Positions 7,379-24,336 of a stretch of 32,000 bases of DNA are shown in pieces. The translations under genes and the position numbers were made by a program. The stretch's first letter is position 1, and every line of letters starts with the position of its first letter. A model generated the notes under the pieces. That model was not told the origin of the DNA and ran no database searches. It saw only the letters and a list, made by a program, of their open reading frames with translations. Origin of the DNA: Polynucleobacter yangtzensis (GTDB lineage: Bacteria > Pseudomonadota > Gammaproteobacteria > Burkholderiales > Burkholderiaceae); contig NZ_LOJI01000001.1 of assembly GCF_001595965.1 (NCBI RefSeq), positions 246,178 through 278,177 of the forward strand. Direction: 5' to 3'.

Positions 7379-7399
7379 GATGTCGTTTTAAACGACATC
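7379..7399. repeat. Perfect 21-bp palindrome GATGTCGTTT-T-AAACGACATC
   Basis: It starts 1 nt after the kinase stop codon and belongs to the TTTWAAA-centred palindrome family. Confidence 0.9.
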
Positions 7400-7421
7400 T
7401 AAACGTACCGCATAAACGAAA

Positions 7422-7495
7422 AAAACCACCCGAAGGTGGTTTTGGTGTTCTTGGTGGCCGGGGGCGGAATCGAACCGGGGCCGAGATGCTTAGAC
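7422..7495 (-). repeat. R2: terminator hairpin + tRNA-Phe 3'-end fragment
   Basis: Hairpin at 7422-7443 and TGGTGGCCGGGGGCGGAATCGAACC at 7452-7476, with 1 mismatch and 1 deletion relative to the consensus, followed by GGGGCCGAGATGCTTAGAC. Confidence 0.85.
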
Positions 7496-8014
7496 AAGTT
7501 GTTTTGTTAACAACACCAGCTTAAGGCCACTGATCTTAGGATTTCCAACGCCAGCATCTGCTGGATAGTCTGAGCTTACTTGCGTGGGCTCGTAGCCCCT
7601 ACGCAAATAAAAATCAAATAACTCTTTACGCTCTGAAATAACAAATAAATTAACCTCTGAAGACTCATATTGATTTTCGGCATACTCTTCTGCGAGCTGA
7701 AGTATTTCTTTGCCCAAGCCAAGATTTTGATATGACGGCTTAACTGTCAGCATGGCGATATAGCTTGCCCCAGCCTCTTCGTTGATATTCACGCAGGCAA
7801 CAATCTCACCTTTGTTTAGGCCGAGCAATATTGTCGACCCATCCCCATCAAGCAGATCAGCAAGTTGCTGTGTGTTGATTCTGTCGCCCTCTATAAGCCC
7901 TGACTCATGAGTCCAGCCGGTCTCAGGGCCGTTGGGACGATACGAGTTATTTATTAAGCCCACCAGCTCTGGTACGTCCCTTGCTGTGGCAATACGATAT
8001 TCGTCAATATTCAT
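7490..8014 (-). CDS. GNAT family N-acetyltransferase
   Basis: Carries the acetyl-CoA motif KPSYQNLGLGKEIL. I call the start at Met45 of the track ORF (MNIDEYRIATARDV). The upstream 44 codons of ORF 7490-8146 merely translate the tRNA fragment and terminator repeat. Confidence 0.8.
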   Translation of the reverse strand: MNIDEYRIATARDVPELVGLINNSYRPNGPETGWTHESGLIEGDRINTQQLADLLDGDGSTILLGLNKGEIVACVNINEEAGASYIAMLTVKPSYQNLGLGKEILQLAEEYAENQYESSEVNLFVISERKELFDFYLRRGYEPTQVSSDYPADAGVGNPKISGLKLVLLTKQLV

Positions 8015-8034
8015 GACGATAGTTTCACCCAAAT

Positions 8035-8115
8035 ATGAAAAAACCACCCGAAGGTGGTTTTGGTGTTTCTTGGTGGCCCGGGGCGGAATCGAACCACCGA
8101 CACAAGGATTTTCAA
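8035..8115 (-). repeat. R3: 81-bp perfect direct repeat of the tRNA-Phe 3' half (anticodon loop to CCA) plus terminator
   Basis: Identical base for base to 24944-25024. It covers tRNA positions ~32-76, the 9-nt spacer and the UUCG hairpin. The sequence past 8115 diverges and forms no cloverleaf. Confidence 0.9.
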
Positions 8116-8175
8116 GCATCCTCCGATTGACCGCTTCGCCAAGCATTTCAAGTGGTTATGCCAACCGAGACAGAT

Positions 8176-8238
8176 TGTGCGCAAAAAATGCTGAGCGTTT
8201 TCAGAAACTTACCGTAGCGTGTTGAAACTGTGCGCAAA
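8176..8238 (+). repeat. Two direct copies of TGTGCGCAAA (8176-8185, 8229-8238)
   Basis: A 10-mer repeated 53 bp apart, just inside the island end next to R3. This position fits arm-type recombinase binding sites, which is inference. Confidence 0.4.
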
Positions 8239-8335
8239 CCCAAATACCAATATGTAGCGGTGACTGACGTAAGGAGTACCAATAAATTAACTACACAAAT
8301 GCGCTAAATCTCGGTTCATGTATCAGTCAAAAATT

Positions 8336-8453
8336 GGTTCGACTCCTGCTCATGCCACCCAATTTTGGTTCGAATCCTAGTAGTGGTACCGAACAAAGTT
8401 TGGTTCTCAGCCATGCCACCAAACCTTTAGTTCGAATCCTGTGCCTGCAGCCA
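8336..8453 (+). repeat. Tandem cluster of four tRNA 3'-end-like fragments (T-loop + T-stem 3' strand + acceptor 3' strand + CCA-like end)
   Basis: The four units are GGTTCGACTCCTGCTCATGCCACCCA (8336-8361), GGTTCGAATCCTAGTAGTGGTACC (8367-8390), GGTTCTCAGCCATGCCACCA (8402-8421) and GTTCGAATCCTGTGCCTGCAGCCA (8430-8453). None has a matching 5' half. The units alternate A-B-A'-B', like a diverged ~64-nt duplication. Confidence 0.7.
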
Positions 8454-8469
8454 ACCATTGGTACTTGGA

Positions 8470-8488
8470 ATGTCGTTTTAAACGACAT
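8470..8488. repeat. Perfect 19-bp palindrome ATGTCGTTT-T-AAACGACAT
   Basis: Same family as 7379, 21842 and the others. It lies 17 nt after the tRNA-like cluster and upstream of the DUF3800 gene. Confidence 0.9.
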
Positions 8489-8564
8489 ACAAATACCTTA
8501 CTTTAATCTACTAAATTCTGTAAACTTTTCTGATTAATTAAAATCTTTTAAATCCATTTCTACT

Positions 8565-9284
8565 TTGTCAAATACAACCACTTCGCCACCTACGCATTAC
8601 AAAATATTTTGCGATGAAAGTTGTCATCTCCTAAGTGACAGCTCAAACATAATGGTATTTGGAGCGATTAAATGTGACGCAGATCAAGTGGCAAACGCCA
8701 TAAAGCAAATAAAAAGCTTGCGTGTCGTTCATAATTATCACACTGAAATTAAGTGGACTAAATTACATACCAAACATTTGCCGTTTTATAAAGCTCTCAT
8801 TAACTTATTTTTTGATTGTCATTTTTTAAAATTTAAAGCGACGGTTGTTCTTGATAAAAATCTACTAGATCACGAGAAATATAACAATGGATCTCACGCT
8901 GATTTTTATTACAAAATGGCGTACTACTCTTTAAGAGATTTTTTATCTACGCCAAATACTACATATCAAATTTATTTTGACTATGTAGATACACAAGGAA
9001 ACAATAAGGCCTCGCGTTTAAGAGATATTTTAATTAACAGGATGCATGGAAATCTTGAACTTTCAACTCAAGTCATAAGATCCCACGAATCGAACTTAAT
9101 TCAACTTTGCGATCTCTTGATTGGGGCGATTGGCTATGTCAATAGAAATGATCTAGCTCATTTAAGCAGTATAAAAAATCAAATTATTGAACACTTAAAA
9201 GTAAAAAGCCATAGAAGCTTAAATATTGCTTCGGCACCTTGGGAAGAAAAATTTAATCTTTTCCTTTTTAGCCCAAGAAAATAA
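8565..9284 (+). CDS. DUF3800-like protein
   Basis: N-terminal YKIFCDESCH (the DES motif) and C-terminal SNLIQLCDLLIGAIGY (the QxxD motif), as I recall for DUF3800. The gene is very AT-rich, and the TTG start with no clear RBS leaves the start uncertain. Confidence 0.6.
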   Translation: MSNTTTSPPTHYKIFCDESCHLLSDSSNIMVFGAIKCDADQVANAIKQIKSLRVVHNYHTEIKWTKLHTKHLPFYKALINLFFDCHFLKFKATVVLDKNLLDHEKYNNGSHADFYYKMAYYSLRDFLSTPNTTYQIYFDYVDTQGNNKASRLRDILINRMHGNLELSTQVIRSHESNLIQLCDLLIGAIGYVNRNDLAHLSSIKNQIIEHLKVKSHRSLNIASAPWEEKFNLFLFSPRK

Positions 9285-9285
9285 G

Positions 9286-9798
9286 ATGCTTCCTTCTATT
9301 ATCAATACAAGTGGCATTGATGCTACAAAGCTTTTTGATCATCTTTATAGATTTTTTCATCAAGATTTTGTCTGCAATAGGACATACCTGAATCAAACAA
9401 TTTACATAGATCCACAATCTAAACAACTAGAGGATGGCAAAGAAAAAACTTTTTGGCACCTCACGACAAAAAAGGATCAGTTAACCAAGATAAGGCTTTA
9501 CGATCCAAGACGTGCAGAGCGCCTCAATTGGGTAAAGGTAATCATTGAAAACCATTCGGCTCCATTAGTTTCATATTTTTATCATCAAGAAAATAATGCT
9601 AAAAAAGATATAAGACTATATCTCTGGGCAGAAAACCATGATTTTGTAGTCATCCTTCAAAAGCTCGGTAGATCCAGTTCAATTCTTGTAACAAGCTTTT
9701 ATATAGATCATCCCCATAAAAAGGTTGATTACAAAAAAAGACTTCATGCTTATCGCAATGGAACCAATCCAGCACTTATGAATGTTGATTGGTTTTAA
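9286..9798 (+). CDS. Hypothetical protein, translationally coupled partner of the DUF3800 gene
   Basis: The ATG lies 1 nt after the upstream stop (MLPSIINTSG...). The C-terminal ...DFVVILQKLGRSSSILVTSFYIDHP is reminiscent of small RelE/barnase-type toxin folds, a weak impression only. Confidence 0.55.
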   Translation: MLPSIINTSGIDATKLFDHLYRFFHQDFVCNRTYLNQTIYIDPQSKQLEDGKEKTFWHLTTKKDQLTKIRLYDPRRAERLNWVKVIIENHSAPLVSYFYHQENNAKKDIRLYLWAENHDFVVILQKLGRSSSILVTSFYIDHPHKKVDYKKRLHAYRNGTNPALMNVDWF

Positions 9799-9801
9799 AA
9801 A

Positions 9802-9824
9802 AAATCCGCCATGGAGGCGGATTT
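9802..9824 (+). terminator. Intrinsic terminator after the two-gene module
   Basis: AAATCCGCC-atgg-AGGCGGATTT, starting 4 nt after the stop codon. Confidence 0.7.
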
Positions 9825-10107
9825 AAGAATTTGGTCGCCTATTATGGACCGGGCGATACGGTCACCTCTTTCTACCAATTGGTAGGTGAGCGAAGTGATT
9901 TTGCAACATACAGCTCAAGATTACAAATCTAAATACCCTAATACAGTGAAAATACAACATCTATAATGCTGTAACTCATTGATTAAAATGAATATTTTTA
10001 ACTGCATCAAATTATTTACCCACTCGATGTATGGGTAAATAAACAACTCCCACACCCAAATAAATGAATTCCTGAAACTAAAATTGCTAATAACGGCAAA
10101 TTTTAGA

Positions 10108-10446
10108 ATGAAATCATTACCCAAAGAACTTAAAACTACTTCCGTTGATTCCAAGCTACCCACACAGGCTAGATTTGAGCAAAGCTTGCGAGATTCTATT
10201 GAAGGTCAGGAATCCATATTAAGCATTGGCTATTTGCAGTATGTTGCTCAATATCAATCTCATAACCCCTTTAGTCATTCACGCATCACCTACAAAGTAA
10301 TCCATAGAAATACAGGATGTTCTGTGCTCATTAAATTAACTAGGGTTTTAAATACTGGCTCAGGGCTACGCAAACGCCAGAGAATCAATAGAACTGCAAA
10401 GCGAATAGCAGTGAAATGGATGCCAAGACTCAAGACGAGGTATTGA
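10108..10446 (+). CDS. Hypothetical protein (doubtful)
   Basis: ORF-track entry 10084-10446 with an internal ATG at 10108. The C-terminus is basic, there is no RBS and I recognised no motif. Confidence 0.25.
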   Translation: MKSLPKELKTTSVDSKLPTQARFEQSLRDSIEGQESILSIGYLQYVAQYQSHNPFSHSRITYKVIHRNTGCSVLIKLTRVLNTGSGLRKRQRINRTAKRIAVKWMPRLKTRY

Positions 10447-10526
10447 TTTACGCATTACCTGTCAGCCAGATAATCTGTCAAACTCTAAAAAGAGTAATCA
10501 CCAGATCAAACCGCGATTTTGAATCA

Positions 10527-10922
10527 TTAGAGCGGTTTGGGCGTTTCGCCCCTTAAATAGTCCCTAAACATTTTTAACTCTTGCGGCGATTTAGTAGTAA
10601 TAGTGGGCCCTGTTGTAGCGGGTGACTTAGGTTGTGAAGGTGCAATCGTTTTAGCTTGAGCAACTGGCTTAGCTACTTTTTGCTGTACAGCTTGTGCTGG
10701 CCTAGTTACTGGAGCAGGCATAGCTCTTTGAAGCAAACTCACCGCCTTGGGTTTAGGTATCTTTGGGGCTTTGGGGGTCTTGGCTTTGGGCTTACTGGCT
10801 TGAGCCGCCTTCTGTTTTGCCTGTGTACTAGCTTGTTGGCTAATGGCACTCCAGGTGTTATTCATAATGATTCGCAATAATCCTAGCTGATCTTCTGCAT
10901 TGGCAATCTCATACATTCTCAT
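10527..10922 (-). CDS. Hypothetical protein with a Lys/Pro/Ala-rich low-complexity region
   Basis: Strong AGGAGA RBS. A ~30-aa N-terminal segment is followed by QAKQKAAQASKPKAKTPKAPKIPKPKA...KVAKPVAQAK repeats. Confidence 0.65.
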   Translation of the reverse strand: MRMYEIANAEDQLGLLRIIMNNTWSAISQQASTQAKQKAAQASKPKAKTPKAPKIPKPKAVSLLQRAMPAPVTRPAQAVQQKVAKPVAQAKTIAPSQPKSPATTGPTITTKSPQELKMFRDYLRGETPKPL

Positions 10923-10977
10923 GGCTTTCTCCTTTCCTTATATTTATCGGATCGTCTAGGATTTAGACGATCCCCAC

Positions 10978-11127
10978 CTAAACCTCTGTTGGCAAATGCA
11001 CCACATTGTTTGCACCATACTGCCCTTGCAATAAGAAATAAGCGGCTTGACTGTTATCGGCAACTACTTGAGTTTGCACTACCCAGCCCTGCGGCTGTAT
11101 ACGTACGTAGGCTACATATGTTTTCAT
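10978..11127 (-). CDS. Small hypothetical protein (49 aa)
   Basis: My own translation gives MKTYVAYVRIQPQGWVVQTQVVADNSQAAYFLLQGQYGANNVVHLPTEV. A 10-bp-stem hairpin, GGATCGTCTA-ggatt-TAGACGATCC (10949-10973), follows it. Confidence 0.35.
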   Translation of the reverse strand: MKTYVAYVRIQPQGWVVQTQVVADNSQAAYFLLQGQYGANNVVHLPTEV

Positions 11128-11183
11128 TTAATCCATCCATAGAAAAAGAGCTAACACTAGGATTAGCATTAGCTCGTGGTTAC

Positions 11184-11621
11184 TCACTTACCAAACCCAG
11201 CACGTACAGCGCCACTGGCTTGCTCTATCTGGGTATCTAACTCCCCCGCTTCTACAGCGCCTTTGATAATCTCTAAGGCTTTGATAAGCTCATCTGCAGT
11301 GGCAACTTCTACGGCTGTTTTGCCTTTTGCAAACTCAATCACGCGGCTTCCATAGCGAACGTTTAGGCAAACCTTGCCGTCACTAGACACAAACCACCAC
11401 TGACGTACACGCTTTTGATGCTCTACGGTTTTGCGAGAGCCGTCATAGTCTTTAACTGATTTAAATTTCTTAACAGTAAAAGTATTGCCTTCGCGTTGGG
11501 CCTTCGCAAGTTGGATCTGCTCCCATACTTTTGTAGAGAGCTTATTGCGTCGCTGCAAAATGGGTGGGATAGACGTTGGCTTTTTAGAGTTAACCATTTT
11601 CAAACTGTTTAATGTGCTCAT
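11184..11621 (-). CDS. Hypothetical island protein
   Basis: 145 aa with an AGGAGA RBS 7 nt upstream. It is transcribed divergently from 11767-12150. I recognised no catalytic motif. Confidence 0.6.
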   Translation of the reverse strand: MSTLNSLKMVNSKKPTSIPPILQRRNKLSTKVWEQIQLAKAQREGNTFTVKKFKSVKDYDGSRKTVEHQKRVRQWWFVSSDGKVCLNVRYGSRVIEFAKGKTAVEVATADELIKALEIIKGAVEAGELDTQIEQASGAVRAGFGK

Positions 11622-11675
11622 TTCATTTCTCCTTTGTAGTTAATGGGCACACTTAATTTATGGTCAGAGTTTTTG

Positions 11676-11687
11676 GTTGGACAACCT
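11676..11687 (-). promoter_or_regulatory. Shared promoter/operator motif AGGTTGTCCAAC (-35 region) upstream of 11184-11621
   Basis: Minus strand reads GGTTGTCCAAC-N..-ATAAAT, that is TTGTCC, a 17-nt spacer and ATAAAT, about 55 nt before the ATG. The same 12-mer recurs upstream of the integrase. Confidence 0.5.
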
Positions 11688-11766
11688 CTTTTTGCCAATA
11701 TCTGCCAGAACCAAAGGATTTAAGCCAGATCTGTTCTTCTTTTATTAGGTTTTGCTAAATACTTTT

Positions 11767-12150
11767 ATGAACTACAAGAAGAAACGATTAACTGAGGCAC
11801 AGTTTCAAATTAACAATCGTCAAAAGTACGATTCGAAAGTTACTAACAGCCTTCTAAAAGCTAATGGACTTAATCCGCAGACTTTTTCAACAATGCCTCT
11901 TGAATTAGTGCAAGCCCGCATCGTTGCAGTAGAACTACTCAAAAATTACTCACAATTTTTAACAAAACATCAAACTAAGGCACTCAATAAATTCAAAAGC
12001 AAAACCGCAGATAAAAAGAAATGCAATCAACTTAGCCCTACTTTGGCTTATCCGATACTCAATCTAGCAACCAAAATCAAAAGACAGGCTCATAAACAAG
12101 AACTGCAAGCAAGGCAAACTATCCAGGAACTAAGGTACAACCAACCTTAA
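11767..12150 (+). CDS. Hypothetical basic protein
   Basis: Track ORF 11752-12150. The first ATG is at 11767 (MNYKKKRLTEAQ...). The protein is Lys/Gln-rich. Confidence 0.5.
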   Translation: MNYKKKRLTEAQFQINNRQKYDSKVTNSLLKANGLNPQTFSTMPLELVQARIVAVELLKNYSQFLTKHQTKALNKFKSKTADKKKCNQLSPTLAYPILNLATKIKRQAHKQELQARQTIQELRYNQP

Positions 12151-12486
12151 CAAACAGGTACAAACGCGGGTTGTAATACGTCGGCTAATGAGCCCGCACT
12201 TGGCATAACTGCTCTAAAGGTTATGCAATACAAGTAGGCCGCAAGATTCCTAGATTTTCTAGGTTTGAAGTTTTAATACATCTGTCTTCAATAAATCTTT
12301 TTAGAGTCGTGTTGCTGAGGAACTCATCGTACCAATCTACACGTAGCGGCGGCTTTAGTACTTTCATAGTGCTATAGCCGTCGTTTGACTAAAGAATCTA
12401 TCAACCAATCAGCAATCAAAAGAAAGAAGATATGTGTGAGCGGAAGCGAAACACAGGACGAATGCAGTTCGTCCAATAAGGCTTGA

Positions 12487-12846
12487 TTAGATATTTAAAT
12501 TTTGTTCAAGTTGAGTATAAAAATCTGGCATTTCTTCTTTAGTAATTTCCCAACCAGAGCAGTTATTTCTGACTGAATCCCACAACCCCCAACCACCAAA
12601 AGCAACTACTGCTTGTCCAACCAGACCCATTACAGAGTCAATGATTTCCTGAGCCGTTGCTGTTGAGCCATCTTCATACGCACAGAGAACTGCAATGGGA
12701 ACCCCTTCATTGATAGCCATTGACTTTCCAAGATATCCTTTTGAGTCTTGTGACCGAATTCGCTCATCTAAAGCTACTGAGAAATTTTTTAATTCAAGCT
12801 GAATGGGGAAATTTTCAAATTCAAATATGGCGGCAACAGTTTTCAT
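12487..12846 (-). CDS. Hypothetical protein
   Basis: 119 aa, acidic and AT-rich, with no RBS and no recognisable motif. A hairpin, GGACGAA-tgcag-TTCGTCC, lies downstream at 12455-12473. Confidence 0.5.
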   Translation of the reverse strand: MKTVAAIFEFENFPIQLELKNFSVALDERIRSQDSKGYLGKSMAINEGVPIAVLCAYEDGSTATAQEIIDSVMGLVGQAVVAFGGWGLWDSVRNNCSGWEITKEEMPDFYTQLEQNLNI

Positions 12847-12859
12847 TTAAATTTTTATG

Positions 12860-12880
12860 AAATGTAATTGAATTGCATTT
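12860..12880. repeat. Imperfect palindrome AAATGTAATTGAATTGCATTT containing the AAATGTAAT half-site
   Basis: One of four AAATGTAAT/ATTACATTT occurrences in the 390-bp intergenic region upstream of the short recombinase. Confidence 0.7.
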
Positions 12881-12992
12881 TACCTGACTGGGTATAGACG
12901 CAAAATCACCACCCTGAATCTATAAGTACTTCATATAAATTTTTCGCAGCTCTATTTTTAAAGGGCACAGGACCCATTCGGGTATCAAATTA

Positions 12993-13064
12993 TTCGTTTA
13001 AGCGGTGATCTAGCTCACCCGCATACATGGGTAGCTGAGGGCTAAATATATATGCTTAAACGAA
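12993..13064. repeat. Long imperfect hairpin closed by an 11-bp perfect inverted repeat TTCGTTTAAGC / GCTTAAACGAA
   Basis: The arms lie at 12993-13003 and 13054-13064. There is inner pairing between AGCTCACCC and GGGTAGCT. Confidence 0.6.
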
Positions 13065-13091
13065 GGATTTAGCTGTGGCATTTAAGCCACG

Positions 13092-13123
13092 AAATGTAAT
13101 AGAAGTATGAAACTATTACATTT
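13092..13123. repeat. Inverted repeat AAATGTAATAG-N10-CTATTACATTT
   Basis: Perfect 11-bp arms. Confidence 0.8.
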
Positions 13124-13215
13124 AGAGCTAAGTCATTGAAATTGAAAAGATCTTTGTTTTGCCATTTTCGGTTGCTCAAACCAAACATAAGAAAACATAC
13201 TGTAGCTGCTTATTT

Positions 13216-13224
13216 ATTACATTT
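13216..13224. repeat. Half-site ATTACATTT, 12 nt upstream of the recombinase ATG
   Basis: It is the inverted partner of AAATGTAAT at 12860-12868, and the outer pair spans 365 bp. Confidence 0.6.
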
Positions 13225-13236
13225 TGGGAGCTACAT

Positions 13237-16246: not shown

Positions 16247-16256
16247 GGAGAAAATC

Positions 16257-16553: not shown

Positions 16554-16562
16554 GGGGCGACT

Positions 16563-17162: not shown

Positions 17163-17178
17163 ATTGTTCTCTAGCACA

Positions 17179-18453: not shown

Positions 18454-18504
18454 TTTGTGGGCAGATTACCGTTGTCATACCGCTATTTTATTTTCAGACT
18501 TAGA

Positions 18505-18516
18505 GTTGGACAACCT
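18505..18516 (-). promoter_or_regulatory. Shared promoter/operator motif AGGTTGTCCAAC upstream of the integrase
   Basis: Minus strand reads TTGTCC, a 17-nt spacer, then TAAAAT, about 55 nt before the integrase ATG. Confidence 0.5.
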
Positions 18517-18522
18517 GAACAA

Positions 18523-18547
18523 GAAACGTACTTTTAAAGGACGTTTC
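18523..18547. repeat. 25-bp near-palindrome GAAACGTACTTTTAAAGGACGTTTC
   Basis: Two arm mismatches, centred on TTTTAAA like the main family. It sits just upstream of the putative integrase promoter. Confidence 0.7.
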
Positions 18548-18711
18548 TATGGCTAAGCGCAGTCTTGATTTAACCTTTTATTCGACCTTTTCTGCATAAG
18601 TCTCTCTATAAACAGGCTTTAAGACTTTCACTAAATTATCAACATCCATTGCGGCTAAATTAGATCTGCCACCAATAATGTTAACTTCTTTAATGAAGTT
18701 TCTAAAACTAC

Positions 18712-19887
18712 TCAACGAAACATTGGGTATAACACTAGACCAAATAAAGCGGCCGCAATTACCACCACCGGCTCAGTGAGTTTCTTGTATTTCCAAAGCA
18801 ATGCGGTCGTCACAATAGCCAATACAGCAGTCGGAATATCCACAATAGAGCGCTGACCAATCACAATGACTGAACCAGTAATAGCACCAACTGCGGCGGC
18901 TGTTACTCCGTCAATAAAAGCAACCAGACTCGGATTCTTGCCATATTTCTTAAAGTAAGGTGCTGGAATAATAGTGAACAAGTAGCAAGGAATAAAAGTG
19001 GCCAATGCCGCAACACTGGCACCAGTAAAGCCAGCAATGAGATATCCAATAAAGCCAACAGTGATGACTACAGGACCTGGCGTAATCATTGCAACAGCCA
19101 CCGCATCGACAAACTGTTTCTCAGTTAGCCATTGATGCTCTACAACTACACCGCCATATAAGAATGGCACGATGGCTAATCCCGAACCAAATACAAAGGC
19201 GCCTGCTTTTGTAAAGAAGATGGCAATTTGACTTAGAAGTGAAAGATCAAAGCTACCCCAAATACTCGTAAATGCTGGTACTTGAGTAACGGCAATGGAG
19301 TTCAGTCCACCGCTCTTAAACCACTTTGGTGGCGCCTTAACAAATAAAGTAATAAGGCCTGCAGTAAAGACGAGTGAGGCAATTTCAGATTGAGTGATGA
19401 CGGTACTTACCACCATCACTACAAAGATTGCCCACAATAACTTATCTTTACCAATCGTTTTCTTAGTGAGTTTTTGGGCGCTAATCGCAATGATGCCAAT
19501 CACGGCGGCACCCACGCCATAAAAAACTGCCTGCATCCAAGCTAAATCTCCATAAGCCACATATGCCCATCCTAGAGCAACCACCATAAAAAATGAGGGG
19601 ATCACAAATGCAATACCTACTAAAGTTGCTCCAAGAATTTTGTAATGCACATACCCAAGATATATGGCTAATTGTGCAGCCATTGGACCAGGGGCCATCT
19701 GAGCTAAGGCCATTCCTTCTCTATAATCAGCTTCAGTTATCCAGCCATACTTCTCCACTAAATCTCGATTCATATAACCTACCAAAGCGACCGGTCCTCC
19801 AAAACCCCAAGTACCCAACTTGAGCATATAGATAACCAATTGCCAAAGTGAATAACTTGGTTTGAGTTGTTCTATTGAATTGCTCAT
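18712..19887 (-). CDS. chrA: Chromate ion transporter (CHR family)
   Basis: 391 aa with ~10-12 TM segments and the duplicated CHR halves: FGGPVALVGYM... and GSGLAIVPFL...ITPGPVVIT. Confidence 0.85.
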   Translation of the reverse strand: MSNSIEQLKPSYSLWQLVIYMLKLGTWGFGGPVALVGYMNRDLVEKYGWITEADYREGMALAQMAPGPMAAQLAIYLGYVHYKILGATLVGIAFVIPSFFMVVALGWAYVAYGDLAWMQAVFYGVGAAVIGIIAISAQKLTKKTIGKDKLLWAIFVVMVVSTVITQSEIASLVFTAGLITLFVKAPPKWFKSGGLNSIAVTQVPAFTSIWGSFDLSLLSQIAIFFTKAGAFVFGSGLAIVPFLYGGVVVEHQWLTEKQFVDAVAVAMITPGPVVITVGFIGYLIAGFTGASVAALATFIPCYLFTIIPAPYFKKYGKNPSLVAFIDGVTAAAVGAITGSVIVIGQRSIVDIPTAVLAIVTTALLWKYKKLTEPVVVIAAALFGLVLYPMFR

Positions 19888-20822
19888 TTCACACCCTCTT
19901 TCGTAAATGCGCCTACCAAGGCATCAAATACACCGCTGGCTTTGTCGAGCAATTGATCATCGGTTTTAGTGGATACCTTCAACCCCGCAATGATTGCCTC
20001 AACACCTTGCGCTTCAGCTGGTTGAATACCACCTACATCCAAAGCATGAATCACAGCGCCCAAACGCTTAATAGCCGCATCATCAATTCCAAAACTTTGG
20101 GCAATCACTTCAAATGTCACTAGGCCATCTATATGGGTAAAGGTAGCGCCATCAAAATCAAATCCCAACGCGGTCTTAGGGCACTCCTTTATTGATTTAA
20201 GCCAGATAAATGATGCCTTTGGGTCGATGTACTTACGGATAAGCCAAGCACTAGCGAGCCTATCAATCCAAAGTCTAGAGCGGGTTGCCCACCTCTTGCC
20301 TTGATAGTTCTTGATATTGAGCTTGGTAATTTTTCGCTGAATGGCATGCGGCTCACCTGGAGATTGAATGGCAGCAATCGCAAGCTCCAATTCTTCTAAA
20401 ACACGATTAGCTTGTCTGCTTGATTCACCAACATAAAAATCAATTGCTACTAATGCCTCATATTGCTTACGAAGTTTTCGCGCTTCTTTAATTTGTTCAA
20501 GTATTAATTTGGGTTTAAGTTTTTTAATCAGAGCCTTAGATTGCTGAATTAATTGGGCATAGTCTTCTGCTCGATCAAACAACGATTTAAAACTTTCGCT
20601 TGTCGGCTGTTCAATAGTCACTACATAAGCTGAACCACCCGCACTTAATACTTGCTCTGAAGCAAGCTCGAATGTTGTTTTGTGTTGCTTATCATTTGGC
20701 AAAATATATACACCATCTCGCAGAACAGCGGCGCCTGAAGCCTTTAAAGAACGCCAAATTCGCATCCGCTCCGTAGGGCTGGAAGTAGGCAAAGATAGGA
20801 TGAGGGCATAGAACTTGTTCAT
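19884..20822 (-). CDS. chrB: ChrB-like chromate resistance protein
   Basis: The N-terminal LSLPTSSPTERMRIWRSLKASGAAVLRDGVYILPN is typical of ChrB. A 4-nt overlap couples it to chrA. Confidence 0.75.
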   Translation of the reverse strand: MNKFYALILSLPTSSPTERMRIWRSLKASGAAVLRDGVYILPNDKQHKTTFELASEQVLSAGGSAYVVTIEQPTSESFKSLFDRAEDYAQLIQQSKALIKKLKPKLILEQIKEARKLRKQYEALVAIDFYVGESSRQANRVLEELELAIAAIQSPGEPHAIQRKITKLNIKNYQGKRWATRSRLWIDRLASAWLIRKYIDPKASFIWLKSIKECPKTALGFDFDGATFTHIDGLVTFEVIAQSFGIDDAAIKRLGAVIHALDVGGIQPAEAQGVEAIIAGLKVSTKTDDQLLDKASGVFDALVGAFTKEGVK

Positions 20823-20860
20823 GTAATATATGCTACATTAATGTATTAAATACTACAAGT

Positions 20861-20891
20861 ATTGATTTGTCGTTTAAAACGACAAATCAAT
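20861..20891. repeat. Perfect 31-bp palindrome ATTGATTTGTCGTTT-A-AAACGACAAATCAAT
   Basis: The longest family member, lying between the divergent chrB and TonB-like genes. Confidence 0.9.
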
Positions 20892-21010
20892 GACTCATCA
20901 ATGGCAGCCTATTCTGATTAAGACGCTTAAACGGCACCTAGCTAGCCATGACATGATGTATGGACAACAAGCAAACCTATAACGCAATCGATACAGTCTA
21001 AGCCTCTAAA

Positions 21011-21805
21011 TTGACCAAACAACCGGCGCCTATGCGCTCCGTCGCTATCTGGCTCTCCATCGCTCTTCACCTAGGGCTATTTCTGCTGTGGACATCATAT
21101 GAAGGCTTCACCCACTTAAAACCCAAAGATAAAAATCCAGACATCATTGAGGTTCAGCTTGAAGAGCCTATCGCTAAAACCAATAATGACTTAAACGCCA
21201 GTCAAAACATCGATAAACAGCCAGTATCATTGGCCGCTCCCTTAGCGCCAACAGCAGAAGAGTGGGCTTTTGCCTCAAAGTACACACTCAAAAATAGCAA
21301 AGGCTATCGCCATTCCTTTGGTCAGCAAGTGCGAAGTATGATGGGAACTGCTGTTGAGGGGCCAGACCAAGGGCAAGTGAGATTTAGAATTGAAATTGCT
21401 CCGAATGGCGCTGTCGTTAAAGTGGAAACACTTTGGAAAACATCGGACAAAGCAGAGCAATTGGCGAGAAAGGCAATGAAGTCTATGCCTGCTTTGCCGC
21501 CCACGCCAACTGGGAAATCACTTATTTTTGAGAGAACCATTTCATTTACGCCATTTGCTACAAATGATGCCCCAATTTACAGGGATGATTGCCTGCCTGA
21601 TACACCAGCGTTTGGCAATCCATTTGCCTGGGATGGCAAATCACCGCAAGAAATCAAGAAGAGCAAGTCTGCTGAAAAACTCAGCCCCGAAGCCTTGGCA
21701 GAATGCCTTAAGCAGTTACCCCAAGATTCTATTGATGGCATCACTGCTGAAGCTCAACGGCAACTAGACATATGGAGCTCAGGAAAACTTAATCAAAGAA
21801 AGTAA
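21011..21805 (+). CDS. TonB C-terminal-domain-like membrane-anchored protein
   Basis: An N-terminal TM anchor (VAIWLSIALHLGLFLLW) and a central VRFRIEIAPNGAVVKVETL... TonB_C-like segment. The start may be the ATG at 21032. Confidence 0.55.
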   Translation: MTKQPAPMRSVAIWLSIALHLGLFLLWTSYEGFTHLKPKDKNPDIIEVQLEEPIAKTNNDLNASQNIDKQPVSLAAPLAPTAEEWAFASKYTLKNSKGYRHSFGQQVRSMMGTAVEGPDQGQVRFRIEIAPNGAVVKVETLWKTSDKAEQLARKAMKSMPALPPTPTGKSLIFERTISFTPFATNDAPIYRDDCLPDTPAFGNPFAWDGKSPQEIKKSKSAEKLSPEALAECLKQLPQDSIDGITAEAQRQLDIWSSGKLNQRK

Positions 21806-21841
21806 GGTTTCTATATATACGTATATACGCATATATTTGTA

Positions 21842-21904
21842 ATGTCGTTTTAAACGACATCGACTGACGCAAGGATGCTAACTTGATTTATCCTTTTAAA
21901 GGGA
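21842..21904 (+). repeat. Conserved ~63-nt module: 19-bp palindrome + GACTGACGCAAGGATG + second TTTTAAA palindrome
   Basis: About 85% identical by eye to 24275-24336. A partial third copy of the middle motif, GACTGACGTAAGGAG, lies at 8262-8276. Confidence 0.8.
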
Positions 21905-21964
21905 CGACTCATGATGGGGCTAACCGAGACTAATGGCGTCCTGTCTCTAGACGCTAACAAATAA

Positions 21965-22064
21965 AAAACCACCCGAAGGTGGTTTTGGTGTTTCTTGGTG
22001 GCCCGGGGCGGAATCGAACCAGGGCCGAGGATGTCTGACTCTATTTCTAGACTGTCATTTTAAA
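21965..22064 (-). repeat. R4: terminator hairpin + tRNA-Phe 3'-end fragment + shared arm ending in half-site TGTCATTTTAAA
   Basis: Hairpin at 21965-21986, TGGTGGCCCGGGGCGGAATCGAACC at 21996-22020, then AGGGCCGAGGATGTCTGACTCTATTTCTAGAC and the half-site at 22053-22064. Confidence 0.85.
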
Positions 22065-22174
22065 AAATCCATAAGTTGCTTCATTTCATACAAAAATAGT
22101 TAATGTGAGGGGTATTAAGGCTTACCTTTTAGAAACTAATCACTAATAATAGAGCCATTCAATATGGACTTTCT

Positions 22175-23098
22175 ATGACAAAATTTTTCTTAACTATATT
22201 TTTGGTAGCAACATTCGGTTCAGCATCATATGCTCAAACCCTTAAAAGCCAAAAGATTAATGAATCTAGTTATGCCTTGATTGGTGAAATTGGCGGTAGA
22301 ACTTATGAGAACCAAGGTCTAAATGCCAACTATGGGGTTGTGGTTACAAAGGATGGAGTCATACTGATTGATAGCGGCGCATCAAAACAAGGAGCGGAGC
22401 TAATTAGTAAAGAGGTTCAAAAAATAACTGCGCAGAAAATACGATGGGTCATCAACACAGGCTCTCAAGACCATCGCTGGTTAGGCAATGATTACTTTAT
22501 ATCGCAAGGCGCTGAAGTGATTGCTCTTAGTAAAACGGTTGCCACGCAAAAATTGATGGCGGGCGGGCAAGTAGACTCGGTTAAAGCCGTTTTAAAGGAT
22601 CGCTTTAACGGAACTAAACCAGCATATGCTCAAAAACCAATTACTCAAAATGATGTTGCTCTGGATCTTGGTGGCACAAAAGTTCAGATTAAATATCTTA
22701 ATCACGCTCACTTTGAAGGCGATGTCGTGGTGTATCTTCCAGACCAAAACATCATGTTTTCGGGAGACCATATATACGTCGATAGATTGTTAGGAGTTTT
22801 GCCGCAAAGTAATGCCTCAACATGGTTAGATGCTTTTAATCAGATTGAATCTATTAATCCAAAGGTAATTGTTCCTGGACATGGCAATATTTGCGATCTA
22901 AACAAAGCAAAGAGACAAACAGGCGACTATCTGAAGTTTCTTGTTGATGGAACAAAAAAATACGCTGAGGAAATGGCGGGTGTTGAAGCCGCCGTTAAGG
23001 GCTTATCAAATGCCCCCCAATTTGAAAAGTTAGCGAACTTTAATGAACTACACAAAGGAAATATCAGCAGAACATATCTTAGGTTAGAGGCCCAGTAA
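22175..23098 (+). CDS. Secreted MBL-fold metallo-hydrolase-like protein
   Basis: It has a signal peptide and the later MBL ligand motifs HAHFEGD, SGDH and PGHG. The first motif reads TGSQDH instead of HxHxDH. Confidence 0.7.
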   Translation: MTKFFLTIFLVATFGSASYAQTLKSQKINESSYALIGEIGGRTYENQGLNANYGVVVTKDGVILIDSGASKQGAELISKEVQKITAQKIRWVINTGSQDHRWLGNDYFISQGAEVIALSKTVATQKLMAGGQVDSVKAVLKDRFNGTKPAYAQKPITQNDVALDLGGTKVQIKYLNHAHFEGDVVVYLPDQNIMFSGDHIYVDRLLGVLPQSNASTWLDAFNQIESINPKVIVPGHGNICDLNKAKRQTGDYLKFLVDGTKKYAEEMAGVEAAVKGLSNAPQFEKLANFNELHKGNISRTYLRLEAQ

Positions 23099-23099
23099 A

Positions 23100-23116
23100 T
23101 GTCGTTTAAAACGACA
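23100..23116. repeat. 17-bp palindrome TGTCGTTT-A-AAACGACA
   Basis: It starts 2 nt after the MBL stop codon. Confidence 0.9.
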
Positions 23117-23163
23117 GCGACAGGCAAAGTCGAACTGCGTTAATGCTTTAGCTAACAAATGAG

Positions 23164-23258
23164 AAAACCACCCGAAGGTGGTTTTGGTATTTCTTGGTGG
23201 CCCGGGGCGGAATCGAACCAGGGCAGAGGATATCTAGACATAATAACTGTCGTTTAAA
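23164..23258 (-). repeat. R5: terminator hairpin + tRNA-Phe 3'-end fragment + arm ending in half-site TGTCGTTTAAA
   Basis: Hairpin at 23164-23185, core at 23195-23219, then GGGCAGAGGATATCTAGAC and the half-site at 23248-23258. Confidence 0.85.
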
Positions 23259-23335
23259 TAGATATTTTTAATATTAGAGGCTTATTATTGCTTTTTATAC
23301 AGCCTTGGATTCTAGAAAACAGTTATCCTAAGACC

Positions 23336-24259
23336 ATGAAAAAATATTTGTCCACCTTAAGCATATCCCTGATCTGGTTTGGAATTCCTATGGTAGGCCA
23401 TGCCCAACCTGATGGAGTCGCACAAAATGATGCTATTAAGGCTACGGTTAGTGTTACGGGAATAAACCAATTTAATACCAGCCTAAATACGGGTGGGAAT
23501 TTTGGGTGGTCTAGTGCTGGCGCCACGCTCAATTTGCTGAAACCCATTTCAGCGGCAACTTCAATTGGCGTCTCTGTTCGCTATGGCAGCCAGTTTTGGA
23601 ACTGGAGCAATATGAATAGCTACGGCTATGGTGGGAAGAGTCCATGGACGACGATTAGCACTCCGGCACTGGGCCTCAGCTATTCTCACAAACTCGACTC
23701 TGATTGGAGGCTCAACTTTATTCCCACAATAGAGTCTTCTGCAGAGACTGGCGCCAATCTAAATAACTCCCTTACTTATGGCGCTATTTTTAATGGCTCA
23801 AAACAACTCTCGCCCACCTTAAATCTAGGCCTGGGTACTGGCGTCTTTCGCCAGATTGATACGAACCGAGTATTTCCATTTATTGTGATTGATTGGAAGA
23901 TCTCTGATCGCTGGAATCTAAATAATCCATTCCCAGGTGGTCCAGCGGGTGGCGCAGGTCTGGAGCTAACCTATAAGGTTACTAGTGACTTTAAAGTGTC
24001 GGGCGGTGCAGCCTATAATAGCTATCGCTTTCGCCTAAATGATTCAGGCCCTTACGCTGGTGGCGTTGGTCAAAACAAGTTCATTCCCGTATTTGCCAAG
24101 TTTTCCTATGCGATTGATAGAACCACAGCCCTAGATCTTTACGCCCTTGCCAATATGGGAGGAAGTGTGACTGCCATTAACACCAACGGCAATACTGCCC
24201 TTAGCACCAATTACAGAACTGCTCCCGCAGTCGCTCTAAACCTCGTTAAGCGTTTTTGA
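23336..24259 (+). CDS. Outer-membrane beta-barrel protein (putative)
   Basis: The start is at MKKYLSTLSISLIWFGIPMVGHAQ (signal peptide). The sequence shows alternating Gly/aromatic-rich strands and a C-terminal ...LNLVKRF terminal Phe. Confidence 0.65.
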   Translation: MKKYLSTLSISLIWFGIPMVGHAQPDGVAQNDAIKATVSVTGINQFNTSLNTGGNFGWSSAGATLNLLKPISAATSIGVSVRYGSQFWNWSNMNSYGYGGKSPWTTISTPALGLSYSHKLDSDWRLNFIPTIESSAETGANLNNSLTYGAIFNGSKQLSPTLNLGLGTGVFRQIDTNRVFPFIVIDWKISDRWNLNNPFPGGPAGGAGLELTYKVTSDFKVSGGAAYNSYRFRLNDSGPYAGGVGQNKFIPVFAKFSYAIDRTTALDLYALANMGGSVTAINTNGNTALSTNYRTAPAVALNLVKRF

Positions 24260-24274
24260 TTTCAGCGTCTAATT

Positions 24275-24336
24275 TGTCGTTTAAAACGACATCGACTGAC
24301 GCAGGGATGTCTAATTGATTTGTCCTTTTAAAGGAC
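24275..24336 (+). repeat. Conserved module: 17-bp palindrome + GACTGACGCAGGGATG + GTCCTTTTAAAGGAC palindrome
   Basis: Paralogous to 21842-21904. The second palindrome is perfect with 7-bp arms (24322-24336). Confidence 0.8.

Follow-up and report, generated by a model that had tools for sequence, protein, structure and literature searches.

The tandem array at tRNA-Phe

The window, a 32,000-nucleotide stretch of the Polynucleobacter yangtzensis genome, includes six integrative elements arranged in tandem at a tRNA-Phe gene (5337-25055), each flanked by a direct repeat of about 57 bp composed of the tRNA-Phe 3' end and the tRNA terminator hairpin (Table 1). This longer repeat (hairpin AAACCACCCGAAGGTGGTTT plus tRNA-Phe 3' end) has seven copies (5339, 7423, 8041, 21966, 23165, 24377 and 24950), which the first-pass annotation missed along with the array itself. 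The third copy is the left border of a 14-kb integrase-bearing main island, and small integrase-less single-gene cassettes share the attachment-site arms of the islands. Islands and cassettes alike carry copies of a short palindrome, pal1, of the form (a/t)TGTCGTTT-W-AAACGACA(a/t), or of its sister pal2, TGTCCTTT-W-AAAGGACA.

The backbone of this tRNA-Phe-targeting island family consists of a tyrosine integrase (found in nine palindrome-bearing loci), a catalytic-domain-only tyrosine recombinase (sREC), a clamp-loader-like AAA protein, p269 and DUF6641. The Xer/invertase-like sREC retains the catalytic residues R, K, HxxR, H and Y, and no other gene family co-occurs with the palindrome as frequently. 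The disordered N-terminus of p269 in relatives carries pal1 (VVLND) or pal2 (VLLKD) at codons 15-20, a site that has decayed in the window copy; similarly, relatives have a pal1 copy after the DUF6641 stop codon that is absent there in the window. Searches of Pfam, NCBIfam, PHROGs and PADLOC for a DNA-binding protein gave no suitable hit, and no PDB fold matched the AlphaFold models of p269 or DUF6641.

Table 1. Coordinates of attachment repeats, palindrome sites and backbone genes in the window
Feature	Start	End	Strand	Remarks
att repeat 1	5337	5393		distal end of array; terminator hairpin and tRNA-Phe 3' end, reverse complement
pal1	7379	7399		21-bp perfect; 1 bp past histidine-kinase stop codon, 22 bp ahead of att hairpin
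att repeat 2	7421	7476		
att repeat 3	8039	8119		'long' class; tRNA identity extends to anticodon loop
pal1	8470	8488		main-island P arm; about 350 bp (351 bp) inside att repeat 3
DUF6641	11184	11621	-	conserved backbone protein
sREC	13240	13803	+	188 aa
Loose copy, 1 mismatch	13390	13404		in short recombinase CDS; encodes conserved peptide DVLND
p269	14711	15520	+	conserved backbone protein, unknown fold
pal1	16122	16138		in clamp-loader-like AAA CDS; encodes DVVLND, not conserved in homologues
Tyrosine integrase	17179	18453	-	main island; 424 aa; Pfam PF00589, phrog_1
pal1	18265	18283		in integrase CDS, codons 58-63 (CRFKRH)
pal2-like dyad GAAACGTACTTTTAAAGGACGTTTC	18523	18547		loose relative; 70-95 bp upstream of integrase start codon
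pal1	20861	20891		31-bp perfect; divergent chrB / TonB_C-protein intergenic region
pal1	21842	21860		opens conserved 'type A' P' arm of main island
att repeat 4	21964	22020		right border of main island, left border of MBL cassette
Half-site TGTCATTTTAAA	22053	22064		end of MBL cassette P arm; moves with cassette
pal1	23099	23116		straight after MBL stop codon; cassette-internal, identical in 10 contexts
att repeat 5	23163	23219		separates MBL and DUF6268 cassettes
Half-site TGTCGTTTAAA	23248	23258		end of DUF6268 cassette P arm; moves with cassette
pal1	24275	24291		16 bp past DUF6268 stop codon; cassette-internal
pal2 TGTCCTTTTAAAGGACA	24321	24337		2-mismatch symmetric variant GTCCTTTTAAAGGAC; 46 bp centre-to-centre from pal1
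att repeat 6	24375	24431		separates DUF6268 and Lipoprotein_15 cassettes
att repeat 7	24948	25004		live tRNA-Phe terminator and 3' end
tRNA-Phe(GAA)	24980	25055	-	integration target (attB side) of entire array; ARAGORN; Rfam tRNA, 68 bits

Sequence and distribution of the palindromes

The motif GTCGTTTWAAACGAC has eight exact copies in the window (7382, 8472, 16124, 18267, 20869, 21844, 23101 and 24276) and two loose matches (one mismatch at 13390, two at 24322), all within 7382-24336, against about 0.05 matches expected by chance and none of 100 shuffled sequences with more than one; the first-pass annotation was right to call the motif non-random. It had also seen no copy in the core flanks, and indeed none with up to two mismatches is present in 1-7381 or 24337-32000; the palindrome is absent both from 12.4 kb of core flank here and from the homologous core flanks of four other loci (L080, L025, L013 and L037). 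The first-pass annotation was also right about the perfect lengths (21 bp at 7379-7399, 31 bp at 20861-20891), the half-sites (22053-22064 and 23248-23258), the loose relatives (13390-13404, 18523-18547 and 24322-24336) and the placement of copies inside three island ORFs (AAA, 15575-16246; integrase, 17179-18453 on the minus strand; short recombinase, 13159-13803). Its description of copies lying immediately after stop codons fits those at 7379 and 23100, applies more loosely at 24275 (16 bp) and 21842 (37 bp), and does not apply at 8470, which is preceded by a cluster of tRNA-3'-like fragments, or at 20861. Two intragenic copies are largely explained by coding, since the integrase WQCRFK(R) and recombinase DVLN(D) peptides are both conserved; the left half of the integrase copy is dictated by the WQCRFK motif.

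Both palindromes are strictly symmetric. There are 118 exact pal1 copies versus a handful of single-pair variants at each position, and positions 4 and 12 are G-C in 118 copies and C-G in 37, with only 16 asymmetric combinations. The centre is occupied by A or T, in either orientation (pal1, A 92, T 75, C 1; pal2, T 21, A 20 and no G or C, the pal2 counts being unbiased because those copies were by-catch), and the flank logo indicates a site of 17-19 bp with half-sites of 8-9 bp whose centres are about 10 bp apart. In one lineage (L007/L158), pal2 (GTCCTTTWAAAGGAC) replaces pal1 island-wide, occupying junctions where L039, L154 and L156 have pal1, and does so even within the p269 CDS, where the switch alters two amino acids (VVLND to VLLKD) and preserves the dyad. 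A strict dyad, a W-only centre and a concerted switch within a CDS imply that selection acts directly on the sequence. The two palindromes also coexist 46 bp apart in one arm, and the type A P' arm is ordered as pal1, 31 bp, a degenerate pal2 near 21890, about 60 bp, the terminator and the core.

Matches in the genome scan are mostly from Polynucleobacter, clustered, and number at least one to six per genome among the matches listed; within the same matches, exact copies number one to six per genome of about 2 Mb, grouped within 15 kb, and single-contig genomes of that size have one to three copies in one 8-kb block, so that the genome-wide count suggested in the first-pass annotation found the motif restricted to islands. 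Islands selected through sREC contain 29 sites in 70.9 kb (about one per 2.4 kb), a density unbiased for the motif because of that selection. Sites occur just inside both att arms (in the complete islands L154, L156 and that of the window, at 8472 and 21844), at junctions of gene modules and occasionally in codons. The palindrome is thus a hallmark of the islands of Polynucleobacter, a freshwater bacterium, and the internal signature of a mobile-element family stacked beside tRNA-Phe. It is nevertheless dispensable, since some related backbones with sREC (L021 and L051) have no internal copies and pal1 lies near only 39 of the 102 att copies.

A generic genome-wide repeat, either REP/BIME-like or an uptake sequence in inverted pairs doubling as terminators, was among the alternatives of the first-pass annotation and would suit a short palindrome that often follows genes and, like uptake sequences, is restricted to one genus. 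The few, clustered copies among the matches listed and the empty core flanks lead to rejection of the REP and uptake-sequence readings, and the terminator reading is rejected because the site has no U-tract and coexists with ordinary terminators (a GC hairpin terminator adjoins it in L007 and L158); a repeat of this kind has almost no probability of being correct.

Cassette junctions and recombination

Each cassette moves as a unit, with its junctions in the tRNA-Phe-derived repeat. Identical MBL cassettes are found in 10 metagenome contexts and identical DUF6268 cassettes in six, and in all of them homology spans the half-site, gene, palindrome and arm, and breaks only inside that repeat; among 304 ends of segments sharing 95% identity or more, 181 (60%) fall in the att repeat. 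The cassette boundary proper is therefore the longer repeat and not the palindrome, which is not the crossover point because it always travels with the gene, the half-site and the arms, and which is not needed for movement, as many mobile cassettes lack pal1. These alignments contradict, for recent cassette mobility, the lead proposal of the first-pass annotation that strand exchange in the palindrome centre leaves a 5' half-site and a 3' full site on each cassette. The half-sites at 22053 and 23248 do end at the dyad centre, and a pal2/pal1 hybrid combination of half-sites exists in L011 and L034, but the integrity of the cassettes in all 16 contexts, the concentration of recent junctions in att and the occurrence of palindrome-less cassettes in several contexts make such exchange scarcely credible.

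The main rival to a binding-site role, though unlikely, is that pal1 and pal2 serve sREC as core recombination sites, with inverted arms of 5-7 bp around a 7-bp AT-rich overlap (TTTWAAA), between which recombination would swap, delete or invert single gene modules, the A/T centre base setting the relative orientation of two sites. Besides the recurrence and complete catalytic residues of sREC, this reading is favoured by pal1 beginning 1-2 bp past the sREC stop codon in L039, L154 and L156, by the site density in islands selected by close sREC relatives, and by the presence in a few distant sREC islands of other 7-1-7 dyads in the same GTC...GAC style. Several rearrangements point the same way: the boundary between conserved arm and variable cargo coincides exactly with the palindrome edge in more than 20 cassettes, half-sites terminate at its centre, the P' arm of the DUF6268 cassette in the window is chimeric with pal2 (24321-24337) as its switch interval, p259 and f119 are alternative genes in one site-flanked slot, and in L101 and L201 the p259-p313-AAA block lies inverted between two sites. 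The two flanking sites in L039 have opposite centre bases, as inversion would require. The backbones are also mosaic, each gene having its own similarity pattern among islands.

On the other hand, recent junctions are in att and not at the palindrome, and apparent ends at palindrome edges arose where alignments ran on through arms of about 80% similarity. Coincidence is likely, because viable rearrangements in gene-dense islands must end in tiny spacers that the sites occupy. Recurrent dyads are missing from most distant sREC islands, L021 and L051 have the enzyme without internal sites, and the sREC copies of L039, a pal1 island, and L007, a pal2 island, are 92% identical; hybrids of pal1 and pal2 half-sites are rare, recombination at sites in p269 and integrase codons would be destructive, and 17-19 bp is short for a tyrosine recombinase. 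If sREC did act on these sites, a second tier of gene shuffling, likened to that of integrons, would be nested within the tRNA-Phe cassette system.

Mosaic backbones with discordant gene identities, and homology blocks that often stop at the outer edge of a site, might instead reflect conserved linkers at module borders, spread by hitch-hiking without a dedicated factor and kept because divergent islands could use them, in either orientation, as short homology for exchange of the RecA type or mediated by microhomology; the two parental arms of the chimeric arm have no longer identical stretch in common than pal2. Efficient RecA-dependent exchange requires more than 15-19 bp, however, and the dyad symmetry, W-only centre and concerted switch in a CDS imply selection on the site itself, leaving this explanation quite improbable.

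Candidate roles of the palindromes

Palindrome copies are 89% intergenic, versus 27% intergenic sequence, and of 104 intergenic copies 68 have a 3' end as their closest gene end, and 25 lie within 10 bp of the stop codon. This arrangement would suit a hairpin in RNA or single-stranded DNA that is recognised mainly through its fold and less through its duplex sequence, either a folded signal in a single strand or a stem-loop in the 3' UTR with a part in stabilising, processing or insulating cassette transcripts. For a hairpin of this size the predicted stability is high (-6.8 kcal/mol, z-score -4.7), the exchange of G-C for C-G at positions 4/12 is compensatory, and pal2 variants in type A arms are mostly G-U-compatible on the mRNA strand. 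Yet neither the weak T-A pairs nor the 'loop' vary, the centre takes A and T equally and not G or C (a signature of duplex symmetry), RNAalifold found no covariation beyond the dyads, and there is no U-tract, real terminators adjoining the site. Divergent promoter regions and N-terminal codons carry sites as well, independent hairpins would not be expected to switch to pal2 island-wide, and most cassette 3' ends lack the palindrome (57 of 61 on the P side), so that a hairpin is improbable.

The best explanation, held tentatively and somewhat short of probable, is that the palindrome is a double-stranded DNA site for a dimeric, element-associated protein, serving as an operator or accessory site. 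Pal1 and pal2 would accordingly be cis-acting sequences of one tRNA-Phe-targeting Polynucleobacter island family, putatively recognised as duplex by a symmetric dimer. In favour of this reading are the non-random, island-restricted distribution, the array with its cassette boundaries in att, the dyad symmetry and A/T centre typical of sequence-specific duplex recognition, the concerted switch to pal2, and the lack of terminator features. Operator or accessory sites had been another of the first-pass alternatives and stand as the best reading, but the integrase autoregulation attached to them is weak because the intragenic copy encodes a conserved peptide. Sites in both att arms of complete islands, upstream of the integrase gene (18523-18547 in the window, and in L158 and L105), at the p269 5' end and in the chrB divergent region are compatible with control or accessory roles. 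Against this reading, the domain and fold searches gave no suitable DNA-binding protein, and the site is dispensable; against an operator, many sites are at convergent 3' ends or in codons, which is unexpected for classical operators; against a single binder, pal1 and pal2 in one arm would need relaxed specificity, a poor fit with the rarity of asymmetric hybrids; and the mosaic backbones, inverted site-flanked block, half-sites and chimeric arm switching in pal2 fit a recombination site equally well.

Under the preferred binding-site reading, a dimeric protein, either encoded by the elements or a host protein exploited by them, would bind pal1 and pal2. The sites ahead of int, in the divergent region at chrB, at convergent gene ends and at the p269-AAA operon 5' end may govern or insulate transcription, and others may shape the att arms during recombination. 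Such a role resembles those of the dual regulator/excisionase proteins and the KorB-type global regulators of other mobile elements.

The tRNA-Phe tandem array and its cargo

A unit of ~57 bp (AAAAACCACCCGAAGGTGGTTTTGGTGTTTCTTGGTGGCCCGGGGCGGAATCGAACC), consisting of the 3' end of tRNA-Phe and a bidirectional terminator hairpin, recurs in seven direct repeats, so that six integrative elements stand in tandem at tRNA-Phe across 5337-25055 (Table). Core genes flank the array, with katG and a redoxin gene to one side and rsmB, fmt, a response regulator and a kinase to the other; the right flank of the window is 95% identical to Polynucleobacter sp. 86C-FISCH. The 14-kb island, element 3, encodes a PDC-M04-like pair, a DUF6641 protein, the short recombinase sREC (188 aa, only the catalytic domain of a tyrosine recombinase), a clamp-loader-like AAA protein, a 424-aa tyrosine integrase (int) that matches PF00589 and phrog_1 (E = 4e-29), chrBA and a TonB_C protein. 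Sequence features of an array targeted to a tRNA by a tyrosine integrase are present: an intact border tRNA, bounding 3'-end repeats, an integrase in at least one unit, and units that occur independently with junctions inside the repeat.

Features of the array, by window position (repeats aligned; palindromes from a mismatch-tolerant scan)
Feature	Position	Strand	Description
tRNA-Phe(GAA)	24980-25055	-	ARAGORN, Rfam
tRNA-derived repeats, n = 7	5339, 7423, 8041, 21966, 23165, 24377, 24950		AAAAACCACCCGAAGGTGGTTTTGGTGTTTCTTGGTGGCCCGGGGCGGAATCGAACC
Element 1			HTH + histidine-kinase cassette, leftmost
Element 2			GNAT cassette, right after element 1
Element 3	8095-21964		14-kb island
PDC-M04-like pair	8565-9798		DUF3800 protein + overlapping downstream ORF
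sREC	13240-13803	+	short recombinase
int	17179-18453	-	integrase
p264	21011-21805		TonB_C-like domain
Element 4			metallo-beta-lactamase-fold (MBL) cassette, single gene
MBL gene	22175-23098		
Element 5			DUF6268 outer-membrane barrel cassette, single gene
DUF6268 gene	23288-24259		
Element 6			Lipoprotein_15 cassette, single gene
Exact palindromes, n = 8	7382, 8472, 16124, 18267, 20869, 21844, 23101, 24276		GTCGTTTWAAACGAC
One-mismatch palindrome	13390		
Two-mismatch palindrome	24322		GTCCTTTTAAAGGAC, symmetric variant of GTCGTTTWAAACGAC
Extended palindromes	7379-7399; 20861-20891		21 bp; 31 bp
Half-sites	22053-22064; 23248-23258		

The array belongs to a known kind (additive tRNA-anchored islands, tycheposon-like arrays, CIME-like units) and is unusually cassette-like. 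Additive islands have a border tRNA, partial 3'-end repeats between units and an integrase in some units only (PMC10872708; bioRxiv 10.1101/2020.12.28.424599). Like Prochlorococcus tycheposon arrays, the 'Ca. Methylopumilus' tRNA-Lys repeat island and integrase-less elements of the CIME type, the window combines a border tRNA and 3'-end repeats with a tyrosine integrase in only some units, recurrence of the same unit beside different neighbours, and niche-adaptive cargo (chromate resistance, a metallo-beta-lactamase-fold protein, an outer-membrane barrel and a kinase). Unlike them, it has many single-gene units of 0.6-2 kb, related loci having up to eight att copies in 8 kb (L041), which is almost integron-like, and its repeat includes the tRNA terminator hairpin. 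The tycheposons of Hackl et al. reportedly have an integrase of their own tyrosine-recombinase clade and a primase/helicase replication module; no primase or helicase match was found in the island backbone, which includes the clamp-loader-like AAA protein and uncharacterised proteins.

Comparison of the att copy at 8039-8119 with others (loci L014, L024, L068, L079 and L108) distinguishes two classes, of which the short one leaves tRNA identity at the T-loop and continues with AGGGCCGAGGATGTCTGAC, and the long one (8039-8119) retains it to the anticodon loop, followed by ..ATCCTCCGAT.GACCGC. Their sequences suggest two crossover positions, or two integrase types, at one tRNA. Between the third att repeat and the palindrome at 8470 lie four fragments resembling tRNA 3' ends (8290-8470, + strand; GGTTCGACTCC..., GGTTCGAATCC..., ...GCAGCCAACCA), opposite in orientation to tRNA-Phe and unlike it in sequence, which may be relic attachment sites for other tRNAs; in distant sREC islands, too, tRNA-3'-like sequence directly follows sREC. 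The DUF3800 protein and the ORF overlapping it downstream match the PADLOC candidate defence system PDC-M04 (M04A, E = 2.5e-79; M04B, E = 2.5e-65), and thus the main island carries a putative anti-phage pair.

A symmetric palindrome private to the islands

The palindrome pal1, (a/t)TGTCSTTTWAAASGACA(a/t), is a perfect TTTWAAA-centred dyad of 17-19 bp. The first-pass annotation held that it forms a non-random family, and the scan of the whole window confirms this with eight exact and two loose copies against 0.05 matches expected from shuffles, as well as the two extended palindromes and the two half-sites that had been described; positions 1-7381 and 24337-32000 contain no copy. The copies inside int and sREC are largely dictated by conserved peptides, and the one in the AAA gene is lineage-specific. 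Only tRNA-Phe passes the Rfam covariance models across the window, with no match at any palindrome (weak matches to CRISPR-DR47 and potC were dismissed as chance). Neither this sequence nor any other Polynucleobacter palindrome was found described in the literature searched or in Rfam, and the literature on additive tRNA islands and tandem arrays, as far as searched, reports no element-wide perfect palindrome. The GNAT cassette, which has no pal1, contains a different AT-rich hairpin (GTTGTTTTGTTAACAAC, 7478-7505) between its P arm (one of the attachment-site arms) and the GNAT stop codon.

A scan for TGTCGTTTWAAACGACA in one genome per species found at least 119 stretches. Among the 119 matches listed, 48 are from named Polynucleobacter, most other multi-copy stretches are from freshwater betaproteobacterial MAGs with GC contents of 0.40-0.45, and other taxa have single, chance-like matches. 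Exact copies among these matches number 1-6 per genome, in clusters that span no more than 15 kb and often lie at the end of a contig; genomes of ~2 Mb in a single contig have 1-3 copies in one 8-kb block. REP/BIME and DNA-uptake sequences are present in hundreds to thousands of copies spread across the core genome. The palindrome resembles Neisseria DUS pairs and enterobacterial REP as a short genus-specific sequence with palindromes downstream of genes, but it is restricted to islands, has no terminator tail and is not dispersed over the core; the earlier suggestion of a genome-wide REP or uptake sequence is therefore excluded by the 1-6 clustered copies per genome among the matches listed, with none in the core flanks. 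The palindrome-bearing loci also hold multiple tRNA-Phe cores, and the preferred position of the palindrome centre is 63-213 bp from a core, towards the terminator. Seven IMG/VR viral contigs (L124-L130), among them a 254-kb UViG and a giant-virus MAG, have one exact 17-mer each.

The paired positions are essentially invariant except 4/12, which are G-C in 118 copies, C-G in 37 and asymmetric in only 16. The centre base is A in 92, T in 75 and C in one copy of pal1, and T in 21 and A in 20 copies of the sister dyad, pal2, with no G or C; an unbiased flank logo widened the site to 17-19 bp. In the L007/L158 lineage, pal2 occupies junctions that hold pal1 in other islands, and within the island protein p269 the switch to pal2 turns VVLND into VLLKD through two symmetric substitutions, the protein being altered to keep the dyad. 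Such a pattern is what sequence-specific recognition of duplex DNA with two-fold symmetry would leave, and the palindrome does not look like a structure-only hairpin. A Rho-independent terminator has a GC-rich stem followed by a U-tract. The palindrome was rejected as an intrinsic terminator, a role the earlier annotation had entertained, in view of its AT-rich stem near the loop, the absence of a U-tract or T-run and the true terminators that adjoin the sites; a terminator scan of the window listed, among palindrome copies, only the pal2 at 24321.

Cassette junctions and island backbones

The index of an assembly collection lists the identical MBL protein in 200 blocks and the identical DUF6268 protein in 286, next to many different neighbours; both cassettes are thus highly abundant, and hardly vary, in many freshwater metagenomes. 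In ten MBL contexts (one of them adjoining the live tRNA), identity begins at the left hairpin and core, spans the P arm, half-site, gene, stop codon, pal1 and 63-bp P' arm, and stops at GGAATCGA(A)CC of the next core, with divergence beyond. The junctions of DUF6268 behave in the same way in six contexts, and 181 of 304 internal alignment ends (at least 95% identity) lie within 45 bp of a core, a zone that makes up 1.3% of the sequence. Because the 16 contexts break in the core and so many alignment ends fall there, crossover is placed in the tRNA-derived repeat, the palindrome and half-site being, by these alignments, internal to the cassette. The first-pass annotation had proposed strand exchange in the palindrome centre, to be checked by aligning cassette boundaries; the breakpoints lie in the tRNA-derived repeat rather than in the palindrome centre, and that model is left unsupported by the MBL and DUF6268 contexts alike. 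The boundaries of the cassettes are thereby corrected to tRNA-derived repeats.

Opposite-facing cassettes (GNAT, Lipoprotein_15 and an MFS gene) lack pal1 yet occur in several contexts, of 102 cores only 39 have a pal1 copy 300 bp away or less, and among 73 distinct cassettes the dyad is on the P' side in 25% and on the P side in 8%; pal1 is thus dispensable for cassette mobility. The possibility that the palindrome is an integrase arm site is weakened by 63 of the 102 att copies, which are without pal1, and by the L007 island, whose proximal P' arm has none. That it marks every gene 3' end was rejected, since it is absent from 57 of 61 P-side cassette 3' ends. Fourteen high-identity junctions at a palindrome edge proved, where inspected, to be extensions of the alignment through arms of ~80% similarity, the true 99%-identity boundary being the terminator/core; the f135 cassette common to L101 and L105 has its breakpoints away from palindromes.

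Many metagenome contigs (L131-L139) share a 6-kb block (17177-23236; int, chrA, chrB, the TonB_C protein and MBL) at 95-98% identity. The start of the block coincides precisely with the integrase stop codon, and this sharp mosaic breakpoint has no palindrome in the window; the AAA-int slot to the left of the block is empty, or holds a 135-aa gene or the 98-aa and 199-aa pair of the window.

The arm at 21842-22064 is 72-83% identical to ~20 loci, with homology that begins exactly at the palindrome and stops at the half-site. Alignment of 39 such modules defines a 'type A' arm: pal1, TCGACTGACGCAGGGATGAATAATTGATT, pal2 (TGTCCTTTTAAAGGACA), ~60 bp, a clade-specific terminator and the tRNA 3' end, followed by a real tRNA body or AGGGCCGAGGATGTCTGACTCTATTTATAGAC and, in some modules, by pal1 in full or in half. 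For 16 type A arms, RNAalifold gave no supported structure besides the two dyads and the terminator. Spacing from pal1 to the core falls into helical-phase-like classes of ~134, 145, 154 and 165 bp, based on 2-3 indels only.

The commonest gene families in palindrome-bearing loci are sREC (11 loci), the integrase (9) and DUF6641 (8), then p313/p269, AAA and p259. In the complete islands L154 and L156, sites are found at conserved positions: in the P arm ~150 bp from the core, after DUF6641, at the convergent sREC/p259 junction (1-2 bp past the sREC stop), in codons 15-20 of p269 and 58-63 of int, after cargo genes, and in the P' arm; the AAA/int junction is a further position in some islands. 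Exact copies are intergenic in 104 of 117 cases, against 27% intergenic sequence, and 25 begin no more than 10 bp from a stop codon. The tRNA-Phe hotspot is built from single-gene cassettes, which are extremely widespread in lake metagenomes, and the integrase-supplying islands carry a private, strictly conserved DNA signal.

Candidate functions of the palindromes

The palindromes are tentatively predicted to bind a dimeric protein in an operator or accessory role, a reading given a little less than an even chance. Sites at both att arms, upstream of int (18523-18547), at the 5' end of the p269-AAA operon and in the chrB divergent region would control or insulate transcription, and may also shape the att arms during recombination. 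The KorB/KorA proteins of IncP plasmids have 13-bp palindromic operators at many places on the element, some of them distant from any promoter; P2 Cox and 186 Apl are dual regulators/excisionases with sites in attP and at promoters. By analogy, the palindrome set might work like KorB-type operators or Cox/Apl dual sites: as in those systems, a short, strictly conserved perfect dyad recurs along a mobile element at intervals of a few kb, and copies lie in promoter regions, inside or behind genes and close to the recombination site. The sites of Cox and Apl are direct repeats rather than palindromes, and no DNA-binding family, whether KorB, Cox/Apl or other, was detected among the island ORFs searched in Pfam, NCBIfam, PHROGs or PADLOC, including no Pfam or NCBIfam match to ParB/KorB. 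AlphaFold models of p269 (pLDDT 69) and the DUF6641 protein (pLDDT 75) have no PDB fold match at E < 0.1, and PDB sequence searches with p313 and p259 were empty. The recurrent palindrome-associated gene p264 was rejected as the partner, since its TonB_C-like domain makes it cargo. If it is a regulatory or accessory site, the palindrome could lead to the control protein of these elements and would also be a simple sequence tag for island DNA in metagenomes.

In look, the set resembles pdif or attC punctuation. The pdif sites are 28-bp Xer sites with 11-bp XerC/XerD arms and a 6-bp centre, which bound gene modules on Acinetobacter plasmids; attC sites are imperfect palindromes of 57-141 bp with R''/L''/L'/R' boxes and GTTRRRY, and integron cassettes are co-oriented and moved by an IntI-type integrase. 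As with these, gene-sized modules have short dyads right after stops, in varied contexts, beside an Xer-like recombinase (sREC); unlike these, the palindromes are perfect and 17-19 bp long, cassette orientation is mixed, and recent junctions are at the tRNA repeat. An integron was rejected (integron-integrase models score 39 bits against a cutoff of 265; no GTTRRRY; mixed orientation), as was a Xer/dif-like pdif site, conservation spanning only 17-19 bp with a single-base centre. The palindrome thus lacks the defining features of integron, dif, REP/DUS and terminator sequences.

The main rival reading, unlikely though worth weighing, is that the palindromes are recombination sites for sREC, which is catalytically intact by its residues; they would then represent a new gene-capture mechanism. 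Alternative genes (p259 or f119) occupy a site-flanked slot, the p259-p313-AAA block is inverted in L101 and L201, backbones are mosaic, half-sites stop at the dyad centre, and a chimeric arm in the window has pal2 as its switch interval; however, recent junctions fall at att, the apparent junctions at palindrome edges are alignment artefacts, the sREC of a pal1 island and that of a pal2 island share 92% identity, and some sREC islands have no internal sites. It is likewise unlikely that gene shuffling has two tiers, a system not described before, in which the minimal sREC would act on the 17-19-bp symmetric sites, with the A/T centre base encoding orientation, to swap, delete and invert island modules that then spread as single-gene cassettes at tRNA-Phe. 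Polynucleobacter ranks with the most abundant bacterioplankton of fresh waters, and its micro-diversification is attributed to genomic islands; if two tiers do operate, one of the most abundant freshwater bacteria has an integron-like device made from different parts.

A scan of metagenomes for sREC relatives, which is unbiased with respect to the motif, found 29 pal1/pal2 sites in the 70.9 kb of nine loci with at least 75% identity to sREC. More distant relatives have mostly zero such sites, and a few have other 7-1-7 dyads of similar style; no universal dyad downstream of sREC was found among 80 relatives. The other perfect 7-1-7 dyads, GTCGGTTnAACCGAC, GTCCAGAnTCTGGAC and GTTACTTnAAGTAAC (the last in up to three copies per locus), lie beside distant sREC relatives (L176, L179, L180; L191, L194, L196; L225, L229) in hosts with other GC contents, and each by far exceeds what chance would give in 600 kb.
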